Source of the DNA: a bacterium HR16
GTDB taxonomy: Bacteria; Armatimonadota; HRBIN16
Assembly (NCBI GenBank): GCA_002898895.1
Contig: BEHS01000001.1
Coordinates: 7,106-71,105, forward strand
DNA: 64,000 nucleotides
Direction: 5' to 3'
Positions 1,273-46,592 of the stretch are shown one piece after another (the first letter of the stretch is position 1; each line of letters opens with the position of its first letter). The notes beneath the pieces are model-generated. The model had not been told where the DNA came from. It saw only the letters and a program-made list of their open reading frames with translations, and made no database searches. The position numbers and the translations under genes are program-made.

Positions 1273-2199
1273 TTACCGTCCGGGCGCAGGTGGACCGGGA
1301 GGAGGTCCTCCCATCATCTGCTGGAACATCTGCATCCCCTGCTCCATCAGCATCCTTCGCTCTTCGGGCGACATGTTCATGAACATGCGCAACCCTTCTT
1401 GCATCATCTGCATCCGCAGTGACGGGTCCATGTTCATGAACATCTGGATACCCATGCGCATCGCCCTCTGGCGCTCTTCCGGCGACATCTGCATGAACAA
1501 CTGCATTCTCTGCTGCTCCAGCGCCAGGAAGTCCTCTGCGCGTACTTGTCCCTGCCTGCCACGTTGCCCCGCTTGCTGGGCAACCATCGGTTGCTGGTAA
1601 AACACCACGTATACCGGGCGCGTCTTAAACGCCGGAACCATCTCGTCCAGCTGCTGTTCGAAGTCCGACGATACGGTCACGTTGCGCACGAAGGAGGTAA
1701 TCCGGTTACCGGTAGTATCTGCAACAATCAGCCCCTGCGCTTCGAGGTTTACAATGGAGCGCACCCAGTTGACCAGCGTCTCAGAAGCGGGCAACTCCAT
1801 ATCCGCACGCAGGTACACCTTGCGCCAGACTACGCCGGGTATCTGTTTGACGACCGCATCCAGCGCAGACTGAGCGTCCTTTGCCTGCGCGGGCGGCGTC
1901 ACACGTCCCTGCAACAGCGGGTCCACCACCACCTGCAGTCGAAACCGCTGGGCGATGTCTGCCAGAACCTGTCGCACGTCACTACCGGTTTGCCGCGCTT
2001 GCTGAGGCAGTTGCTGCTGGAACTGTGCTGCAGGCGGCTGAAAATCGGCGGGCGGCGGTGGCGGCATCACCGGCTCCGCCGGCACATCCACTGGCGGTTC
2101 CGGTGGGGGTTCAGGCTCACCCGGGGCGGGCTGTGCCCAGAGCGGGATGAGGGCATACACAGATAACGCCACGATAGCCGCTATCGTTCTCCACCACAT
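1273..2199 (-). CDS. secreted protein with Pro-rich linker and C-terminal Met-rich repeats (MFMNMSPEERR-like)
   Basis: N-terminal signal/TM, PEPPPEPP stretch, then 4-5 repeats of MQMFMNM..SPEER. First gene of the sigma/anti-sigma operon. Confidence 0.6.
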   Translation of the reverse strand: MWWRTIAAIVALSVYALIPLWAQPAPGEPEPPPEPPVDVPAEPVMPPPPPADFQPPAAQFQQQLPQQARQTGSDVRQVLADIAQRFRLQVVVDPLLQGRVTPPAQAKDAQSALDAVVKQIPGVVWRKVYLRADMELPASETLVNWVRSIVNLEAQGLIVADTTGNRITSFVRNVTVSSDFEQQLDEMVPAFKTRPVYVVFYQQPMVAQQAGQRGRQGQVRAEDFLALEQQRMQLFMQMSPEERQRAMRMGIQMFMNMDPSLRMQMMQEGLRMFMNMSPEERRMLMEQGMQMFQQMMGGPPPGPPAPGR

Positions 2200-2420
2200 C
2201 TTAAAACGACCTCCTCGTTTCCTTCATTTCTTATTAGACACCGGGCGCGTTCGAAAAGTTGCGCTCCGTGAGGAATTATGCCAGCTATCGCGATTTTCCT
2301 CACTGTGTACATTGTACCCCCTGTTTTTAGCGACGGGCATCGGGCAGGCTGAACGCGCCGACCGTTCGTGCAGGAACCGCTTCTTCCACGAAAGAATCAG
2401 GTGAGATCAGGAGGAACCTT

Positions 2421-4445
2421 GTGATGCCAAGAGCTATTACCATCGACGACCTGTTTCGGCTCCGGCTGGTCAGCGATGCGCAGATTGCGCCCGATGGTGA
2501 ACGGGTGGTCTGTGTGGTGAAGAACGCTGATCGCGAGAAGAACAAATACTTCAGCCATCTGTACCTGTGTGACCTGCGCACGCGCGAGGTGCGCCAGTTC
2601 ACCAGCGGCGAGGTCGCCGATAGCCAGCCACGCTGGTCCCCGGACGGCAAGACCATCGCCTTTGTCAGCAATCGCCAGAAGCCCAAATCACAGATATTCC
2701 TGATACCGGTGGACGGCGGCGAGGCGCGTGCACTCACCTCGCTGGAGGAAGGTAGCATCGGCGAAATCGCCTGGTCGCCGGACGGCACGAAGATAACGTT
2801 TACCTTCCGCCTCACGCCCGAGCAGTGGCGCGAACAGGTGGTGAAAGAGCGGAAGGAGAAAGGCCTGTCTACCCCGCCCCGTATCATCACCCGTCCGTTT
2901 TACCGGCTGGACGGCGCTGGCTACTTCGACGGCGAGTACTATCAGGTGTGGGTAGCGGACGCCCGTACCGGCGAAGCAAAGCAACTTACGAACGAAGCGA
3001 CATCCTGCGGTAGCCTGAGCTGGTCCCCGGACAGCAGCAAGGTTGCCTTTGTGTGCAACCGCAGTGAAGACCCCGACCTGAACCCCAATCTCGAGGATAT
3101 CTGGCTGGTCCCTGCCGGAGGCGGCGACCTGCAACGGGTAGAGACTCCGAAGGGACCCAAGGGCGGACTCGCTTTCTCGCCCGATGGCACGTGCATCGCC
3201 TACATCGGACATACGAAAGTAGAGGACATCTGGGGTGTTACGAATGACCACCTGTGGATAGCCGACCTGAGCAACGGCACAGCGCGAGACATCATGGAGG
3301 GATTTGACCGTTCGCTGGGCAACCTGACGCTCAGCGATATGCGCGACGTGGGCGGAGGTAGCCGTCCAACGTGGACGCCTGACGGCAAACGGCTGCTGTT
3401 CCTCGCCAGCGACAGGGGCAGCACGAAGCTCTACAGCATCTCCGCCGACGGAGGCGAACCCGTTGCTCTGCGTGGAGAGCGTGCAGACATCACAACGTTC
3501 TCTCTCAGCGCGGACGGCAAGTGCCTCGCATGGTGCGAAGGCACTGCTACGCAACCGCATGAGGTATTCACCGGCACGCTGGAAGACGGGGCGATACAAA
3601 ACGCCAGCGCCGTTACCTGCTTCAATGCCGAGTGGTTGGCGGAAGTGCAGGTACAGGCTCCCGAAGAGTTTACCTGTACCTCGCCCGAGGGCAACGAGGT
3701 GCATGGATGGATTCTGCATCCCCCCGACTTTGACCCGGCGAAGAAATATCCCCTCATCCTGGAGATACATGGTGGACCGCACGCGCAGTACGGCTGGGTA
3801 TTTTTCCACGAGTTCCAGCTGCTGGCGGCGCAGGGCTACGTGGTACTGTACACCAACCCGCGCGGCAGCAAGGGATATGGCGAGGCGCACACGGCGGCGA
3901 TTAAAGGCACATGGGGCGGACCCGACTACACCGACCTGATGGCAGCGGTAGATGCGCTGCTGGCACGCGGGTATATTGACGAGACGCGCATGGGCGTGAT
4001 GGGCGGTTCCTATGGCGGCTACATGACCAACTGGGTGGTGTCGCATACCGACCGCTTCCGCGCCGCCATCACCGACCGCAGCGTGGTTAACCTGCACAGC
4101 ATGGCGGGAACCTGCGACTTCCCCCTGCTACCCGGCGGCGACTACTTCCGGGGCAACGCCTGGGCAGAACCGCAAGACCTGTGGGAGCACTCGCCGCTGA
4201 AGTACGCGGATAATATCCACACCCCGTTGCTTATCATCCATAGCGAGGGCGACCTGCGCTGCCCTATCGAGCAAGCAGAGCAGCTGTTCGCCGCGTTGAA
4301 GGTGCAAAAGAAGGAAGCGGTGCTGGTGCGCTATCCGCTGGAGAGCAGCCATGGGCTATCCCGTTCCGGTCCGCCCGACCTGCGCGTGCACCGACTGCAA
4401 CAGATTGTGGAGTGGTGGAAGAGGTATCTGGCGCAGGATGGGTAG
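2421..4445 (+). CDS. S9 family serine peptidase (prolyl oligopeptidase/acylaminoacyl-peptidase-like) with N-terminal beta-propeller
   Basis: TolB-like WSPDG repeats in the N-terminal half. C-terminal catalytic GGSYGGYMT nucleophile elbow plus conserved D/H region. Confidence 0.85.
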   Translation: MMPRAITIDDLFRLRLVSDAQIAPDGERVVCVVKNADREKNKYFSHLYLCDLRTREVRQFTSGEVADSQPRWSPDGKTIAFVSNRQKPKSQIFLIPVDGGEARALTSLEEGSIGEIAWSPDGTKITFTFRLTPEQWREQVVKERKEKGLSTPPRIITRPFYRLDGAGYFDGEYYQVWVADARTGEAKQLTNEATSCGSLSWSPDSSKVAFVCNRSEDPDLNPNLEDIWLVPAGGGDLQRVETPKGPKGGLAFSPDGTCIAYIGHTKVEDIWGVTNDHLWIADLSNGTARDIMEGFDRSLGNLTLSDMRDVGGGSRPTWTPDGKRLLFLASDRGSTKLYSISADGGEPVALRGERADITTFSLSADGKCLAWCEGTATQPHEVFTGTLEDGAIQNASAVTCFNAEWLAEVQVQAPEEFTCTSPEGNEVHGWILHPPDFDPAKKYPLILEIHGGPHAQYGWVFFHEFQLLAAQGYVVLYTNPRGSKGYGEAHTAAIKGTWGGPDYTDLMAAVDALLARGYIDETRMGVMGGSYGGYMTNWVVSHTDRFRAAITDRSVVNLHSMAGTCDFPLLPGGDYFRGNAWAEPQDLWEHSPLKYADNIHTPLLIIHSEGDLRCPIEQAEQLFAALKVQKKEAVLVRYPLESSHGLSRSGPPDLRVHRLQQIVEWWKRYLAQDG

Positions 4446-18104: not shown

Positions 18105-18245
18105 GTTATGCTGAACGAAGTGAAGCATCTCCGAGATTCTTCGCTTCGCTCAGAATGACAACCTTTTACTGTCGTGCTGAGCGTCAGCGAAGCATCTCAG
18201 CGTGACGATAAAACGAGATTCTTCGCTCCCCCTCAGAATGACAGG
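18105..18245. repeat. family-1 hairpin repeats (GTCATTCTGAGCGAAGCGAAGAATCTC paired with GAGATGCTTCGCT..CTCAGCATGAC), two units
   Basis: Imperfect inverted 27-nt arms. Further clusters at 22157-22294, 23423-23603, 38174-38250 and 46481-46592. Confidence 0.65.
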
Positions 18246-37935: not shown

Positions 37936-38244
37936 TCACCACTCCTGTACTTGCTTGATGATGTGTTCACGTATCGCTTCTTCGATGGCGTAAACGAGCG
38001 CAACGTCCACCTTCAACCTGTCCGCTAACCTCTCTCTCGTAGCCTGCGGTAACCGTAGCGCCCGCTCTTCCAGCCATCGCAGTACCAGCTGTTTCAGAAC
38101 TCTCTTCACCGTTGTCTCTCCTGATAGTCTGTCAGGTGTGATTCTCGTGGCTGTGGCGAGGCGGTCTTGCCTTGCTGTCATTCTGAGCGAAGCGAAGAAT
38201 CTCGTGTTATCGCCACTCCGAGGTGCTTCGCTGATGCTCAGCAT
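37936..38244 (-). CDS. hypothetical phage-module protein (N-terminal part of ORF overlaps a family-1 repeat, so true start probably internal)
   Basis: First about 30 codons are the translated family-1 repeat (SISEAPRSGDNTRFFASLRMT). Likely starts near VKRVLKQLV. Confidence 0.25.
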   Translation of the reverse strand: MLSISEAPRSGDNTRFFASLRMTARQDRLATATRITPDRLSGETTVKRVLKQLVLRWLEERALRLPQATRERLADRLKVDVALVYAIEEAIREHIIKQVQEW

Positions 38245-38305: not shown

Positions 38306-39379
38306 CTAGAGTTGAGTCGCTACCAGCGTGCCCCTGAAGGTCCCCGCAGCAGCGCCAGTGTTCTTCACCTTCACGCGGAAGTTACGAGAACCGTATATCT
38401 GCATGATAGGCGACGACACATAGTACCGAACCACAGCATCTGTCGTGGCATCGGTGCTTGTGCCGTACCACACTACCTGCCAGTTGCTGCCGTCTACCTG
38501 CGCTTCTACCCATGCACTGAACGGCTGGTCTCCCATGAAGTGCGCCTGGATGTGACACTGCTCGGTGTAGAATGCGCGGCTGCTTCCTGTACCCACCGAA
38601 CCCGCAGCGAGAGCGGAGAAGGTGTCCGTTACGCTCTGGATGGAACCCAGGCTGGAAGTGCTGGGGACAGAAGCGAACGGCGTATTCGTGAGCCTGACGG
38701 GAAGTGCCATTGCGTCCACATGATGCCCCAGTGCCCCAGGTGGAATGATATCCGCCAGCTGATATGCGGTCACACGATGCACCTTCAGCGTACTGGTTCC
38801 CGCAAGACCAGCAAGCCGAACGCGGAACGGTCCATCGGGAATACCGCTTTCCACATACCGATACACTTCATTGCGGGTGTTCAGGCTGTTGATAGCGCGA
38901 TACGCCCAGATGGCTTCACCAAACCCGACGTAGATGGTCGCCAGCCTGTAGGTGTTGTTGGCTGCACCGACGCTCATGCTGGTCTGGTCTGAAACCACAC
39001 CACCAGCACTCATCCGCGCATCCATGTAGCTGCTGGTGGTACCTGTTGCGCCCCACTCCACCAGGTTGCCGTCGTCGGTATAGAAACCGAAGCGGAAGTT
39101 ATCGGTAGATGCGCGGGCAGTCATGGTCTCCACCACTTCTATCAGGCAGGGCGGCTGGAAACTCTGCTTGCTGAGCAGCACGACGCCGCTGGTGATGGAT
39201 AGCTCGCCGTTCAACGGAATGGGACTGCCTGATACCACTTCCCACTTGTCGGCGTTCAGCGCACCGTTGAAGTCGTCACTCAGCCAGTGCAGAACCTGTC
39301 CACCCGCTACCGGAAAGGGCGTGTCACTCCGCACCGCCTGCCATCGCCCCATCGTATCTGTGAAGCGCAACCTCCTCAC
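38306..39379 (-). CDS. phage-module structural protein of unknown function (357 aa)
   Basis: Large ORF immediately downstream of the major head gene block. No recognisable motifs. Confidence 0.4.
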   Translation of the reverse strand: MRRLRFTDTMGRWQAVRSDTPFPVAGGQVLHWLSDDFNGALNADKWEVVSGSPIPLNGELSITSGVVLLSKQSFQPPCLIEVVETMTARASTDNFRFGFYTDDGNLVEWGATGTTSSYMDARMSAGGVVSDQTSMSVGAANNTYRLATIYVGFGEAIWAYRAINSLNTRNEVYRYVESGIPDGPFRVRLAGLAGTSTLKVHRVTAYQLADIIPPGALGHHVDAMALPVRLTNTPFASVPSTSSLGSIQSVTDTFSALAAGSVGTGSSRAFYTEQCHIQAHFMGDQPFSAWVEAQVDGSNWQVVWYGTSTDATTDAVVRYYVSSPIMQIYGSRNFRVKVKNTGAAAGTFRGTLVATQL

Positions 39380-41193: not shown

Positions 41194-41976
41194 CTATCGC
41201 CTCCTTCCTTCCGACAGATAACGGGCAATCTGCTCGGGGGACAGGTCGCCCCAGTACTTGCGCAGGAACGCCTCCTCTTCCACGCTCAGCGTGTGCTCCT
41301 GCTCGCCTGCAGGTGCGATCTCGCCAAAACGCACAGTCGGCGGCAACGCCTCCACAAAACGGGCGAACACCTCCGCCACGCTCGCGCTACCGCCTGCAAA
41401 GGTCACTGCCTGCGTGCCCTGCAGGAGCAGTGTCTTCGCCATCTCGCGCGTCGCCGGCGTCAGCTTCCCCTGCCTAAGCCATCGCTGCAACGTCTCCTCT
41501 ACCTGTCGCTCGCGCAGGGCAAACTCTGCCGCCTCCGCCCGCCGACGCAACGCCTCCATGTCCTGTTCCAACGCGGTCACCTCCGTCAAAAGTATCTCGC
41601 CCGAAAAAGCCACCGCGCCCGCACTCAGCAGGCGCGCATCCGCCACACGCGGAGTCGCGGTCACCGACACCTCCACAATCCGCTTCAGGTCGGGCGTCAC
41701 CGCCACGCTGATGCCGCGAATGCCCAGCCGTTTCAGCAACGCCTCCGCTTCCGGCAGCAGGGTCAGCCGCCCGAACAGCTCCTTGCCCCGTCGCCACAAC
41801 CGCTTCAGCTCTCCAATCTGCCATCCCTGCGACAGGTGCTCCACCATCAGCGGAACCGGCGCGGTGAAGCCCTCCACCAGCGATTGCAACTGCTCCTCGC
41901 CCACTTCCAGCCCCTTGTCGGGATAGGAGCCGGCTTCAAACAGCTTCGCCTCTCGCTCCACTTCCAACGCGCTCAC
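41194..41976 (-). CDS. Mu-like prophage protease/scaffold (gpI-like)
   Basis: Position directly upstream of decoration and major head genes. Central coiled-coil (ALEQDMEALRRRAEAAEFALRERQVEETLQRW) typical of scaffold. Confidence 0.45.
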   Translation of the reverse strand: MSALEVEREAKLFEAGSYPDKGLEVGEEQLQSLVEGFTAPVPLMVEHLSQGWQIGELKRLWRRGKELFGRLTLLPEAEALLKRLGIRGISVAVTPDLKRIVEVSVTATPRVADARLLSAGAVAFSGEILLTEVTALEQDMEALRRRAEAAEFALRERQVEETLQRWLRQGKLTPATREMAKTLLLQGTQAVTFAGGSASVAEVFARFVEALPPTVRFGEIAPAGEQEHTLSVEEEAFLRKYWGDLSPEQIARYLSEGRRR

Positions 41977-42195
41977 CTCCTTCCACCCTGTACAGCAGAA
42001 AAGCAGACATTTGTCAACCTTTTTCTAATCGAAGGGCGAGGATCCCCCAATCGCCTGTCTTACGGTTCAGACTTTGAATAACCAGGCGATTTGCAGGATT
42101 GCGGGAAAAATCGGCGAAAAAACCGTCAAGTGATGGTACAATGATTGTGCATATATAACGTGGGACAAAGCGCGTCGGGTTGAGGCTATAGAAGC

Positions 42196-42978
42196 ATGGA
42201 GGAGCTGACAGTAACAATCGGAGCAGGAGGGGAACAGGTTGACTTAAATGACATCAGTCAACTTGCGAACCATTTCTGCAAGGCGATACGGGAATTGGCG
42301 CGCGAGCTCACAGGTCAGGAAAAACCCCGTGTCGACATACCTGTCGTACGGGTCGCATCTGGCAGTGTTGCAATGACAATAGGGCCAATGTCCCGTACGC
42401 AAAGCAGTGAGAGCCTCCCGCTGGCGAAATACGTGTTTGAAGACCTGTCTGGCATTCTCGCCCAAACACCGCGTCCTACTATGTCCGTCGACCTGTACAG
42501 GGCTTACACCGAAGTTATTCGTGCACCCCGCAATACCATACCGTACTCCGTGCTGTACGGGAAACGCTTTATCGAAGTCAACGAGCAGGTCAGGCAGCAG
42601 GTGCATCAGATGTCCGAGTACATTCGCGTTCCGCATGCTTCCGTGGTCGGCACTATCGAGAGTGTAAACATTCACAGGATGCCTTATGTTTTCATGCTTT
42701 ATACAAAAGTGGAGCCACGCCAGCACGTCGAATGCCGATTCAGAGACGACGAGTTCCTTCCTGCGGTCACCGACATCCTGAAATCCAGAAAGATGGCAGA
42801 GATAAAAGGAACCGCATACTATGCTCCTGTAGGCATCTTTCCTCTCAGGATAGATGTAGAGGAGCAACCCATGAAGCTGGAATATTCCCCTGAAGACCTC
42901 CTGAGCTATGTGGGACGATTACACATTGTCCCCGAGGGCGTGACAGTGGAGAAATATCTGGAACGAGAGTGGGAGTAA
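42196..42978 (+). CDS. hypothetical protein (260 aa), partner of downstream PIN-domain protein
   Basis: ORF in a lower-GC segment preceded by an extended -10-like TGgTACAAT at 42134-42142. 8-nt gap to the PIN gene. Confidence 0.5.
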   Translation: MEELTVTIGAGGEQVDLNDISQLANHFCKAIRELARELTGQEKPRVDIPVVRVASGSVAMTIGPMSRTQSSESLPLAKYVFEDLSGILAQTPRPTMSVDLYRAYTEVIRAPRNTIPYSVLYGKRFIEVNEQVRQQVHQMSEYIRVPHASVVGTIESVNIHRMPYVFMLYTKVEPRQHVECRFRDDEFLPAVTDILKSRKMAEIKGTAYYAPVGIFPLRIDVEEQPMKLEYSPEDLLSYVGRLHIVPEGVTVEKYLEREWE

Positions 42979-42985
42979 CCTATCG

Positions 42986-43501
42986 ATGCCAGAAGGTTCT
43001 GATAATAAACCTCGCTATTATTGGGACACTTGCTGTTTCATTCACGTTCTGGACGTTCACAGCAGGAAACGGGCAGCGCAAGATGAGCAGGCGCAGCAGA
43101 TGGTCTTTTTTCTGGAGCAGGCGTTCCGCGAGGCTGTGGAAGGCAAGGTACAACTGGTCACGGCTGAATTGCTTCTGGCAGAGATCCTACCTGTAGATGA
43201 TGACCATAAGAACTTTCTGAAACAGGTTAAAGCCTGCCCCTACATCGAGCTGTTAGCGGTAAGCAGGCAAGTTTTTGAACTGGCTGGACGTCTACGTGCG
43301 GAGTGGCGCACGCACAGCAGGAGCGACCTCAAAACGCCCGATGCCGTTCACATTGCTACTGCGCTACTCTTTAAGCCCGATGAGATGTGGACTACTGATG
43401 ACCGCATCTTGAAATTGTGTAATCCGAGCGAGGGCACATACGGAGAATTGCGGATTGTGCGCCCCCATGCCCTTCCACAAATGCGTCTCCCTGACCTATA
43501 G
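42986..43501 (+). CDS. PIN-domain protein (VapC-like ribonuclease)
   Basis: Acidic PIN residues in YYWDTCCFI, DAVHIATAL and TTDDRIL motifs. Confidence 0.8.
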   Translation: MPEGSDNKPRYYWDTCCFIHVLDVHSRKRAAQDEQAQQMVFFLEQAFREAVEGKVQLVTAELLLAEILPVDDDHKNFLKQVKACPYIELLAVSRQVFELAGRLRAEWRTHSRSDLKTPDAVHIATALLFKPDEMWTTDDRILKLCNPSEGTYGELRIVRPHALPQMRLPDL

Positions 43502-44307
43502 GAGGTGCGTGGCGGATGAACACCCTCTACTACGGCGATAACCTCGACATCCTGCGTAAACACCTGCAGGATGAAACAATAGACCTCATCTACCTCGACC
43601 CGCCCTTCAACAGCGCACGTGACTATAACGTGCTCTTCCGCGAGCAGTCGGGTGAACCCGCGCAGGCGCAAATCAAAGCCTTCACCGACACATGGCAATG
43701 GAGCGAACGCACCTACGTGCAGTTCTGCGAGGAGTGTCCCAAACCCGCCCTTGTGGAACTGCTACAGGGCTTCGTCAAAACACTGGGGCGCAACGATGTC
43801 ACCGCCTATCTGGTGATGATGGCGCCCCGACTGGTGGAACTGCACCGCGTGCTCAAACCCACCGGAAGCCTCTACCTGCACTGCGACCCCACCGCCAGCC
43901 ATTACCTCAAGGTGATGCTCGACGTCATCTTCGGAGCGCGTAACTTCAAAAACGAGATCGTGTGGAAACGCACCAGCGCACATAGTGGGGCAAAAAGATG
44001 GGGACCTGTTCATGACACCGTTCTGTTCTATACAAAGAGCGATACATACACGTGGAACAAAGTTTTCAGCCAGTTTGATGCTAAGTACGTCGAGGAGTTC
44101 TACAGATACGAGGACGATAGAGGCAGGTATCAGCTGGTAGACCTTACAGGAGCGGGAGTTCGCTATGGGGAGTCAGGTCAGCCTTGGAAAGGGGTGAACC
44201 CCACTGCTGTTGGCAGGCATTGGGCAGTTCCGCAAAAGCTGGTAGAGGAAGTGGTTGGGAGGGAACGCGCGTCGCAATTAAGTGTGCAAGAGAAACTGGA
44301 TGCACTA

Positions 44308-45492
44308 GTACTTGACCTCTCATCAATCTTGTGGTATAATCTCGCTAATTTGCTAACAGGAGTGCAACCATGCGAAAATACAGCGTCCAATTGACCGAGC
44401 AAGAACACGAGCAACTGACCGACATCATCCGCAAAGGCAAAGCACCTGCCAGACAGATCACCCGCGCCCACATCCTGCTCAAAGCACACAACGGCGAACG
44501 CTACGCCGACATCGCCCACGCTGTGGGGGTCAGCGAGGTCACCGTCACCACCGTCTGTCGGGAGTTCCAGACGCTGCGCACCGACGCCATCTATCGCAAA
44601 CGCCCCAATCGCGTGTATGCCCGCCGACTGGACGGCGCAGCAGAAGCGCAGTTAATTGCTCTGGCTTGCAGTGCGCCACCGGAGGGACGGGCTTCGTGGA
44701 CGATGCAGTTGCTGGCAGACCGGATGGTGCAGTTGGAGGTGGTGGAGACCATCTCCGCCGAGACAGTGCGTCGTACGCTGAAAAAAACGACCTTAAGCCT
44801 TGGCAGAAGCGTTTCTACTGCATCCCCCCAGAGGCAAACGCGGCGTTTGTAGCGGGGATGGAGGACGTGTTAGACGTGTATCAGCGTGCTTACGACCCCC
44901 ACAGACCGGTGTTATGCCTGGATGAGTTGCCGGTGCAGTTAGTGGGTGAAGTGTTCACGCCGTTGCCGATGGAGCGAGGCAAGCCGAAGCGCGAGGATTA
45001 CGAGTATAAGCGGGAGGGCACAGCGAGCGTGTTCATGGTGTTTGAGCCGCTGGCAGGCAAGCGTTATCTGTTTGTGCGCTCCCGTCGCACAGCGTGTGAT
45101 TGGGCGGAGGTGATGCAGCAGATAGCAGACGAGTTATATCCTGAAGCGGAGCGGATAGTGATGGTGATGGACAATCTGAACACGCACGATGTGGCGTCGC
45201 TGTATAAGCGTTTTGTGCCTTCGGAGGCGTGGCGATTGCGTCAGCGTTTTGAGATACACCACACACCGGTTCACGGTAGTTGGTTAAACGTGGCGGAGAT
45301 CGAGTTAAGCGTGTTAGTGCGTCAGTGTTTGGAACGTCGGATAGGGGATATAGGGGCGTTAGACCGGGAGGTACAGGCGTGGGCGCGGTTGCGCAATGAG
45401 GCGTGCGCTTGTGTGGACTGGCAGTTCACGACGGCGGACGCCCGCATCAAGTTGAAGCGTCTCTACCCAAAGATTGAGGAGAGGTGATGTAC
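44308..45492 (+). mobile_element. IS630/Tc1-mariner family insertion sequence (1185 bp) with TA target-site duplication
   Basis: Imperfect 23-bp terminal inverted repeats GTACTTGACCTCTCATCAATCTT / AAGATTGAGGAGAGGTGATGTAC flanked by TA (44306-44307 and 45493-45494). Two overlapping transposase ORFs. Confidence 0.85.
44370..45487 (+). CDS. IS630-family transposase (orfA HTH plus orfB DDE, joined by programmed -1 frameshift)
   Basis: Slippery A7 run A_AAA_AAA_C at 44782-44788. orfA ...LKKTTLSLG in frame 0, and -1 frame continues [18 protein letters not shown]... with the DDE region. Confidence 0.75.
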
Positions 45493-46480
45493 TAGAAGAG
45501 GCAGGCTATATTGTATGGCCCGAGAAAGGGCGAGTGCCCCGCTACAAACGGTATCTGGACATGAACCCCGGTAACCTCATTCAGGACGTTATCACCGACA
45601 TCAACCCGATTTCCTCTCAAGCCCGTGAGCGTCTTGGCTATCCCACACAGAAACCTATCGCCCTGCTGGAGCGAATCATTCTCGCGTCCAGTAACGAGGG
45701 CGACGTAGTGCTGGACCCCTTCTGCGGATGCGGAACCGCCATCGTCGCCGCCCAGAAGTTGAAACGCCACTGGGTCGGCATCGACATCACTCATCTTGCC
45801 ATTGCGCTCATCAAATACCGTCTCGCCGACATGTTTGACCTGCGTGAGGGCAAAGACTACCTCGTTGTCGGCGAACCCACCACCGTCGAGGACGCCCGTG
45901 CCCTTGCCCATCATGACCGCGACGAGTTTCAGCGGTGGGCAATCGGGCTTATCCCCCGTGCCCGTCCCTATCAAGACAAAAAAGGCGCGGACACCGGCAT
46001 CGATGGCGTGCTCTTTTTCAAAGACGACCCAGACGACCCCAAGAAGGTGGTGATTCAGGTCAAAAGCGGGCACGTGGGTGTGAAGGACATTCGCGACTTT
46101 CGTGGGGTGATGGAGCGCGAGAAAGCCACTCTCGGCTTGTTCGTTACCCTTGACGAACCCACCCGCGCCATGCAGACCGAAGCGGAGAGCGTCGGCTTCT
46201 ACGTCACCCCGCTGGGCAAACTGCACCTGCCTCGCCTGCAGATTCGCACCGTCGAGCAGCTCCTGCGCGGCGAGGGTTTCCAGATACCCGGTGCGGCGAT
46301 GCTGATGGGCGTCTCCCGTGCCGAGCGCGTGCAAGAACAGTTCCGCCAGGGCGAGCTGGAGATGTAATCACGCGGACAGTGTTCACCTGCCCTGTCTTGT
46401 CCGGCAGCCGATGCTATAGACCCTGTACTGTAGAGCGCCAAGGCACGACTGCTTGAATGGGAGCAGACCGTTTCCACTTA

Positions 46481-46592
46481 CTTGTCATTCTGAGCGAAGC
46501 GAAGAATCTCGTTGTATCGCCACCCTGAGATGCTTCACTTCGTTCAGCATGACAACAAAATCCTGTCATTCTGAGCGAAGCGAAGAATCTCA
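46481..46592. repeat. family-1 hairpin repeat cluster (three arms)
   Basis: CTTGTCATTCTGAGCGAAGCGAAGAATCTCG / GAGATGCTTCACTTCGTTCAGCATGACAAC / CCTGTCATTCTGAGCGAAGCGAAGAATCTC. Confidence 0.6.

Follow-up and report, generated by a model that had tools for sequence, protein, structure and literature searches.

A two-gene locus in an Armatimonadota contig

The window analysed here is a stretch of 64,000 nucleotides from bacterium HR16 (Armatimonadota; GenBank assembly GCA_002898895.1, contig BEHS01000001.1, positions 7,106 to 71,105 of the forward strand), and the subject of this study is a pair of adjacent genes within it. The first, here called gene X (42196..42978, plus strand), encodes a protein of 260 aa from an ATG start, and the second (42986..43501, plus strand; 171 aa, also with an ATG start) encodes a PIN-domain protein matching Pfam PF01850. 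An earlier inspection of the letters of this DNA (hereafter the sequence-only reading) had singled out these two co-directional open reading frames (ORFs), and they lie where it placed them, with a spacer of 7 nt (42979-42985) in place of the 8 nt that it gave and a GGGAG ribosome-binding site ahead of the PIN gene. The lower GC content that it described is also borne out, at 0.50-0.54 over 42000-43400 compared with 0.62-0.67 in the phage-like genes on the left and about 0.60 further right. Upstream, the extended −10-like motif that it had pointed to, TGGTACAAT (42134..42142, plus strand, 54 nt 5' of the X start codon), is present as read from the sequence and would be the putative promoter of an operon of X, PIN and perhaps the methyltransferase gene that follows; a two-hexamer sigma-70 consensus scan of 41900-43700 lent this no support, returning zero promoters and zero terminators.

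An intact PIN nuclease with a partner from an unnamed family

The PIN protein scores 26.7 bits against a Pfam cut-off of 23.6 (PF01850), and the motifs by which it had first been recognized as a nuclease (YYWDTCCFI, DAVHIATAL and TTDDRIL) are all in place. The four acidic residues of the active site, D14, E66, D119 and D138, are kept in the window copy and are 99% conserved in 78 homologs. The best match of the PIN profile in the PDB is a VapC (7by2, E 3.3e-6), and relatives are named ‘VapC family toxin’ by both NCBI and UniRef. These features mark the PIN protein as a Mg-dependent nuclease of the VapC kind whose active site is intact.

Protein X, on the other hand, has zero matches in Pfam, NCBIfam, PHROGs and PDB sequences, and no RHH, AbrB, HTH or Phd domain turned up when X and 42 members of its family were compared with Pfam, NCBIfam and the PDB. 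Homology to a housekeeping enzyme, which would have spoken against an undescribed partner, was likewise absent from the Pfam, NCBIfam and PDB searches. Relatives of X, sought exhaustively with HMMER among 1.84 billion representatives, form 57 clusters, nearly all of 250-280 aa, while a word-index search retrieved three close relatives with X itself and 9 proteins with the family profile. Every X that was looked up in NCBI or UniRef is labelled ‘hypothetical protein’, and the partners are labelled PIN or VapC toxins.

Structurally, the model predicted by AlphaFold is confident when built on a 42-sequence alignment (pLDDT 90.9, versus 37 with four close sequences) and divides X into three parts: an unassigned N-terminal alpha/beta domain (residues ~1-140), an OB-fold beta-barrel (residues 143-221; 42622..42858, plus strand) and a C-terminal tail of two short helices (residues 222-260; 42859..42975, plus strand), which we propose as the PIN-binding segment. 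The structure prediction that the sequence-only reading had called for thus yields a new N-terminal domain, and its statement that X lacks any nucleotide-binding, HTH or antitoxin signature holds for database matches but overlooks that the C-terminal half is an OB fold. The tail is modelled at a pLDDT of ~80, compared with >90 for the core, and its alignment shows a conserved Gly and a conserved near-terminal Arg. The OB fold holds the residues best conserved in the family, G152, N158, H160, C180, F182, G205 and P216; in the 57-cluster alignment G152 and G205 are invariant, and S57, H160, C180, F182, P216 and the near-C-terminal Arg nearly so, with the most conserved residues lying around the loop between strands 2 and 3 of the OB fold and in the strand after it. 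These conserved OB-fold residues point to a constant ligand, be it PIN itself, a nucleic acid or a nucleotide. The two partners also differ in charge, X being acidic (median pI 5.5, tail 4.3) and PIN neutral to basic (median 7.7).

X and PIN are linked across phyla

Homologs of X were fetched from genomes and viral contigs with a degenerate DNA pattern for G-x-[LIV]-[ED]-x-[LIV]-N-x-H ... F-x-[LIV]-[YF], which found 8 contigs in IMG/VR (8/8 true X homologs) and at least 119 loci in species-representative genomes, ~99 of them true. The 121 X-bearing loci considered below are among the matches listed, and the species-representative set gives a lower bound. In 101 of these 121, X is followed directly by a PIN gene on its own strand; the remaining 20 are mostly ended by the locus boundary or missed only by the gap threshold, with L015 and L116 (loci are numbered with the prefix L) as genuine exceptions. 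The linkage holds equally from the PIN side, where a PIN pattern found 6 viral contigs and X stood upstream in 6/6. Together the two patterns place X on 14 viral contigs of IMG/VR (8 from the X pattern, 3 additional from the PIN pattern, 3 shared), with PIN adjacent in 13.

The two genes are also packed tightly. Across 84 loci the codon for the catalytic Asp of PIN begins a median of 20 nt past the X stop codon, so close that the two genes must overlap in most of them, and with X directly upstream of PIN and usually overlapping it, both proteins would be made together in fixed proportion. Close relatives of the window X (75-79% identity) occur in another Armatimonadota metagenome-assembled genome (MAG) and several Logan assemblies, where the arrangement X, PIN, methyltransferase gene is kept, and a PIN gene also follows distant X genes (22-34% identity) from unrelated metagenomes. 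Hosts include Armatimonadota, Nitrospirota, Thermodesulfobacteriota, Alpha- and Gammaproteobacteria, Verrucomicrobiota (among them Akkermansia muciniphila), Planctomycetota, Spirochaetota, Chloroflexota, Acidobacteriota and others, at least a dozen phyla in all. X and PIN are an obligate pair conserved across phyla: the synteny on which the sequence-only reading had staked its proposal holds in ~100 loci, in many phyla and from both the X and the PIN side.

The pair travels on insertion sequences and phages

Clustering of neighbouring ORFs showed that the commonest neighbour of X is a transposase of the IS1595 family (Zn-ribbon plus DDE domains; assigned by Pfam on the transposase of L008), directly upstream and on the same strand. 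Of the 83 loci whose upstream sequence is long enough to judge, 23 have it, again among the matches listed. In 11 of the 23, terminal inverted repeats (GGCGAT...) bound a unit of 2.5-3.9 kb that holds transposase, X and PIN, and exact 8-bp target duplications flank five of the 11 (L038, L044, L053, L100 and L107; for example TAAAAAAA in L053 and CTTTTTTT in L038). An 8-bp target duplication and the Zn-ribbon and DDE domain pair are features of the IS1595 family (PMC8101967). Since both the ends and the 8-bp duplications enclose the transposase together with X and PIN, the pair is cargo of a transposing insertion sequence (IS); within the inverted repeats X-PIN overlaps the transposase gene, and co-transcription is probable. 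In total, 28% of evaluable loci are such simple IS cargo with housekeeping neighbours, and 72% are without an IS1595 transposase.

Phages form a further context. Pseudomonas phage vB_PaeS_AV001 carries X and then PIN directly behind its S24 repressor, all on the repressor strand; the phage-type pair occurs in >1000 P. aeruginosa contigs, and in P. aeruginosa LSP20 the locus lies between a prophage integrase and a RelE/HTH_3 pair. Searches of plasmids with X relatives (tblastn) and of phage records with the window X gave no match. As for the window copy, neither transposase similarity (tblastn) nor matching inverted repeats were found around X-PIN.

Subgroups of IS1595 with passenger genes are said to have been described by Siguier et al. 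in 2009 and in ISfinder, which may already list the present IS1595 elements with their passengers. The transposase, ends and 8-bp duplication of the IS1595 family are seen at relatives; the window copy is without these. The sequence-only reading had placed the pair where defence genes cluster; its linkage to a methyltransferase gene is real in the clade of the window, while the context that recurs across the family is mobile cargo. The most characteristic context of the pair thus appears to be mobile-element cargo more than a defence island.

One IMG/VR contig (L019) carries at 3103-4122 a single stop-to-stop ORF with an IS1595 Zn-ribbon-like N-terminus (35% identity over 114 aa) followed by a full X, perhaps what is left of a transposase joined in frame to X.

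Decayed copies

Several loci hold damaged versions of the pair, some of which may be MAG assembly errors. A frameshifted PIN gene follows an intact X in five of them (L060, L063, L078, L079 and L139), truncated X remnants stand without PIN in three (L110, L130 and L132), and in L030 X is interrupted by an insertion sequence. In P. aeruginosa LSP20 (L142, CP089065.2, 4381-6979) an IS3-family element splits X into halves of 147 aa and 151 aa.

Flanks of the pair in the window

Both flanks are as the sequence-only reading had described them, a Mu-like phage head remnant on the left and a methyltransferase gene disrupted by an IS630 insertion on the right. The left flank, on the minus strand, encodes a Mu-like gpT major head protein (Pfam, E 2.4e-65) and a cement-like protein, with a weak, sub-cut-off Pfam match to Mu protein I; to call it a prophage ‘remnant’ is reasonable, as portal and terminase are absent from their expected place. 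Beside the Mu-like head genes lies a minus-strand ORF of 357 aa (38306-39379) without a Pfam match.

On the right, the methyltransferase gene starts 14 nt past the PIN stop codon behind its own AGGAGG ribosome-binding site. It is divided into a 5' part (43516..44304, plus strand; Pfam N6_N4_Mtase, PADLOC models MTase_II and MTase_III) and a 3' part (45496..46367, plus strand; Pfam N6_N4_Mtase at model positions 145-217, Mrr_cat and NA-iREase1) by an IS630-family insertion (44305..45495, plus strand; Pfam HTH_32, HTH_29 and DDE_3) with 32-nt terminal inverted repeats at 44305-44336 and 45464-45495. The inactivating insertion lies at a TA site. When the IS630 is excised in silico, the reading frame is restored, and the resulting protein of 552 aa shares 84% identity along its entire length with the intact ortholog in L001; the protein is a beta-class N6/N4 methyltransferase fused to a C-terminal Mrr_cat/NA-iREase1 endonuclease-like domain with a D...QVK motif. 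Intact orthologs of 554-557 aa lie directly 3' of PIN in L001 (gene at 1955-3628) and L002, and the order X, PIN, methyltransferase, with gaps of 3-14 nt, is shared by the window, L001 (an Armatimonadota MAG with other flanking genes) and L002-L007. A methyltransferase gene directly after PIN is found only in this close clade of the window. X and PIN are intact in the window although the methyltransferase is dead, which indicates that the pair persists without it.

Two kinds of short repeat were also seen. A dispersed repeat, TTCTTCGCTTCGCTCAGAATGAC, occurs six times in the window in copies of 23-28 nt (zero expected by chance), starting at 18137, 22228, 23509, 38177, 46484 and 46565. The last two form a tandem pair 81 nt apart (46483-46591), and the block of phage remnant, X-PIN and methyltransferase is bracketed by the copy at 38177 and this pair at ~46.5 kb. 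In its sequence the repeat reads like an intergenic element of REP or MITE type. Separately, a perfect 9-nt inverted repeat, AATCGCCTG / CAGGCGATT (42049-42057 / 42083-42091), lies in the AT-rich spacer 5' of X and may be due to chance or be a possible operator. Its right arm CAGGCGATT opens with a GGCGATT heptamer (42085), as do IS1595-type ends at other loci; we considered this heptamer as an IS1595 terminus and rejected it as chance, there being neither a partner repeat nor a transposase.

Links to defence systems and to phage proteins

Of ~110 loci, 12 contain a methyltransferase-family gene in the stretch that was fetched, and in two of the 12 (L030 and L130) the pair is decayed. A Type III-like Mod and Res cluster occurs in five loci (L034, L058, L119, L130 and L138), L130 holding only an X remnant. 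In PADLOC searches no validated defence family matched X, and the PIN proteins had no match. Against the model PDC-M32A, the window X reached E 0.014 (12 bits, PADLOC) and the best member of the X family E 3.5e-4, with residues 88-207 collinear with positions 115-235 of 375. The weak collinear matches of some X proteins extend to three PDC-M32A models and span the last part of the N-terminal domain plus the OB fold. Differences from PDC-M32, which has been reported on a Sinorhizobium prophage (PMC12429752), lie in the length of the PDC-M32A models (~375 positions versus 260-280 aa for X), in the lack of significance for most X proteins and in the partners, which match neither PDC-M32B nor any other PADLOC model. 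DUF6575, the name of one structural match, was followed as a lead and dropped: this domain is found in a PD defence system of E. coli (PMC9519451), and X has no PADLOC match to any PD system. A literature search found no description of X or of the X-PIN pairing.

Among predicted viral structures, Foldseek aligned nearly the whole X model with three phage proteins, Q6NE06 of Leptospira phage LE1 and two from uncultured phages (E 7e-10 to 6e-9, probability 1.0, 259-307 columns), although the TM-scores are low (0.38-0.42). LE1-0037 is the sole 381-aa gene in the first 50 kb of LE1 (L014, BX571876, 38735-40413 with its neighbour, minus strand) and by its length alone is apparently Q6NE06. It lies 2 nt downstream of LE1-0038, which encodes a DUF4365 restriction-endonuclease-like protein (E 3.5e-18). 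An hhalign comparison of the X family with LE1-0037 was not significant, and the arrangement is unlike X-PIN in that the nuclease gene comes first and encodes no PIN protein. The DUF4365 neighbour hints that X-like proteins may pair with other nucleases.

Interpretation

We consider it probable that X and PIN form a two-gene toxin-antitoxin module of the VapC type, widespread and horizontally mobile, of which the window has one copy. This reading rests on the VapC-like active site, the overlapping co-encoding of the two proteins, their mobility, the charge contrast between them and the decay in which PIN is lost and X kept. Modules of the PIN/VapC kind are the most numerous toxin-antitoxin systems, and X-PIN resembles VapBC in several respects: the toxin is a PIN protein with four acidic residues whose nearest solved relative is a VapC, the partner gene is immediately upstream and either adjacent (by a 7-nt gap in the window) or overlapping, the partner is acidic and the toxin more basic, and the distribution is patchy and mobile. 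Transposons of the Tn3 family carry toxin-antitoxin pairs, some of them with a PIN toxin, as integral passengers (Lima-Mendez et al. 2020, PMC7157771). X-PIN is like those passengers in being a toxin-antitoxin-type pair inside the element ends beside transposition genes, and unlike them in that its carrier is an IS1595-family IS with an 8-bp target duplication and that the protein in the antitoxin position, X, comes from an unrelated, unnamed family. It is these signatures of type II toxin-antitoxin systems, together with the Tn3 precedent, that lead us to read X as the neutralizing partner of PIN.

Mechanistically, X would bind PIN and block its nuclease, the acidic tail with its near-terminal Arg perhaps being laid into the active-site groove of PIN, as the tails of VapB proteins are. 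Should the element be lost, or some trigger take X away or engage it, PIN would be set free to cleave RNA and arrest growth. The carrier would thereby be stabilized and a phage infection perhaps aborted, with the conserved OB-fold face as a candidate sensor or ligand site. In the window, X-PIN would head an operon with the methyltransferase-Mrr gene, later inactivated by the IS630.

Several observations weigh against this reading. VapB antitoxins are ~70-90 aa long, and the known antitoxins of PIN/VapC systems are small DNA-binding proteins. X, in contrast, is 260-280 aa long, lacks the RHH, AbrB, HTH or Phd DNA-binding domain that defines VapB, and is built of a new N-terminal domain and an OB fold with no sequence similarity to any solved VapB. 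Its tail is without similarity to solved VapB chains (tail profile against the PDB) or to Pfam families (tail peptides). The conservation of N158, H160 and C180 suggests a conserved ligand, and this fits a substrate-binding subunit too; in the pattern-fetched homologs the conservation is partly forced by the search pattern, a bias of which the 57-cluster alignment is free. In LSP20 the overlapping PIN gene stays intact despite the split X, and in L134 the X tail is out of frame and PIN intact; if PIN is expressed in these two, full-length X is not essential, with polar effects, a functional C-terminal half or assembly error as alternative accounts. Finally, toxicity, neutralization and contact between X and PIN are what we infer from the features above. 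As the sequence-only reading had it, then, a two-gene toxin-antitoxin-type module with an undescribed partner comes through the checks of homology, synteny and active site, without the DNA-binding domain of the VapB type, and X-PIN would by analogy work like VapBC rather than be a canonical member of it.

The strongest competing account, which we regard as possible though distinctly less probable than a mobile toxin-antitoxin-type module, is that X-PIN is a dedicated anti-phage abortive-infection system in which X, through its OB fold or its N-terminal domain, senses phage single-stranded DNA (ssDNA), RNA or protein and releases or activates PIN. It overlaps our preferred explanation and differs in taking defence as the selected function and element stabilization as secondary. 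The repressor-adjacent site in a temperate phage is the classical place for superinfection-exclusion genes, and the temperate phage vB_PaeS_AV001 carries the pair at just such a site, next to its S24 repressor and read from the same strand; in P. aeruginosa LSP20 the neighbours are a prophage integrase and a RelE/HTH pair. The methyltransferase-family genes in 12 loci, the Type III-like helicase that accompanies an intact pair in L034, L058, L119 and L138, the weak collinear similarity of some X proteins to PDC-M32A (best E 3.5e-4) and the full-length structural matches to three phage proteins (E ~1e-9) all speak for it as well. Nevertheless, X matches no validated defence model and PIN has no PADLOC match of any kind, the nearly invariant OB-fold residues argue for a constant ligand and not for fast-evolving phage triggers, and the 28% of evaluable loci that are simple IS cargo have housekeeping neighbours. 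A related and similarly tentative idea is that X is a new kind of sensor-antitoxin, whose OB fold, with its nearly invariant Asn, His and Cys, might detect a conserved nucleic-acid or nucleotide cue that reports phage replication or loss of the element, and then let go the VapC-like nuclease.

Less probable still, and in our view unlikely, is a two-subunit nuclease in which the OB fold of X binds the substrate and guides or activates PIN in the service of the carrier element, for example by controlling the transposase transcript or processing intermediates of transposition or replication. OB folds of the type seen in X usually bind single-stranded DNA or RNA, conservation in X peaks around the strand 2-3 loop and the next strand of that fold, X-PIN overlaps the IS1595 transposase gene inside the inverted repeats and is probably co-transcribed with it, and one strain (LSP20) tolerates a broken X beside an intact PIN. 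Set against this, the 72% of evaluable loci without an IS1595 transposase, together with the pairs in phages and restriction-modification loci, mean that the role of X-PIN must be independent of the element; moreover, an acidic X (pI 5.5) would be unusual for a nucleic-acid-binding subunit, and decay of PIN alone with X kept is the pattern expected of a toxin. The least probable account, that in the window clade X, PIN and methyltransferase-Mrr form a three-gene unit in which X-PIN is the addiction or backup effector of a restriction-modification-like system, draws on the shared order and 3-14 nt gaps in the window, L001 and L002-L007 and on a terminator scan that finds none between the genes, and we think it improbable given that a methyltransferase is present in 12 of ~110 loci, where it is mostly not directly downstream or is convergent, and that the methyltransferase of the window is dead while X and PIN are intact.

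Implications

What is new here is a VapC-type module with a new, structured partner family that lacks a Pfam or NCBIfam name, together with a new carrier. X-PIN in IS1595 elements is a clean natural case of a toxin-antitoxin-type module as the cargo of a simple IS, and the repressor-adjacent position in phages provides a testable defence hypothesis in a tractable host, P. aeruginosa. Defining the X family would replace ‘hypothetical protein’ annotations and let toxin-antitoxin and defence finders pair these PIN genes. If X were indeed a sensor-antitoxin, X-PIN would be an unrecognized, phylum-spanning abortive-infection system, offering portable immunity on insertion sequences and temperate phages, and would join the small number of immune modules seen as cargo within a simple insertion sequence. 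More broadly, X-PIN would add an antitoxin architecture to the PIN toxin modules, the known logic of which it would not overturn.

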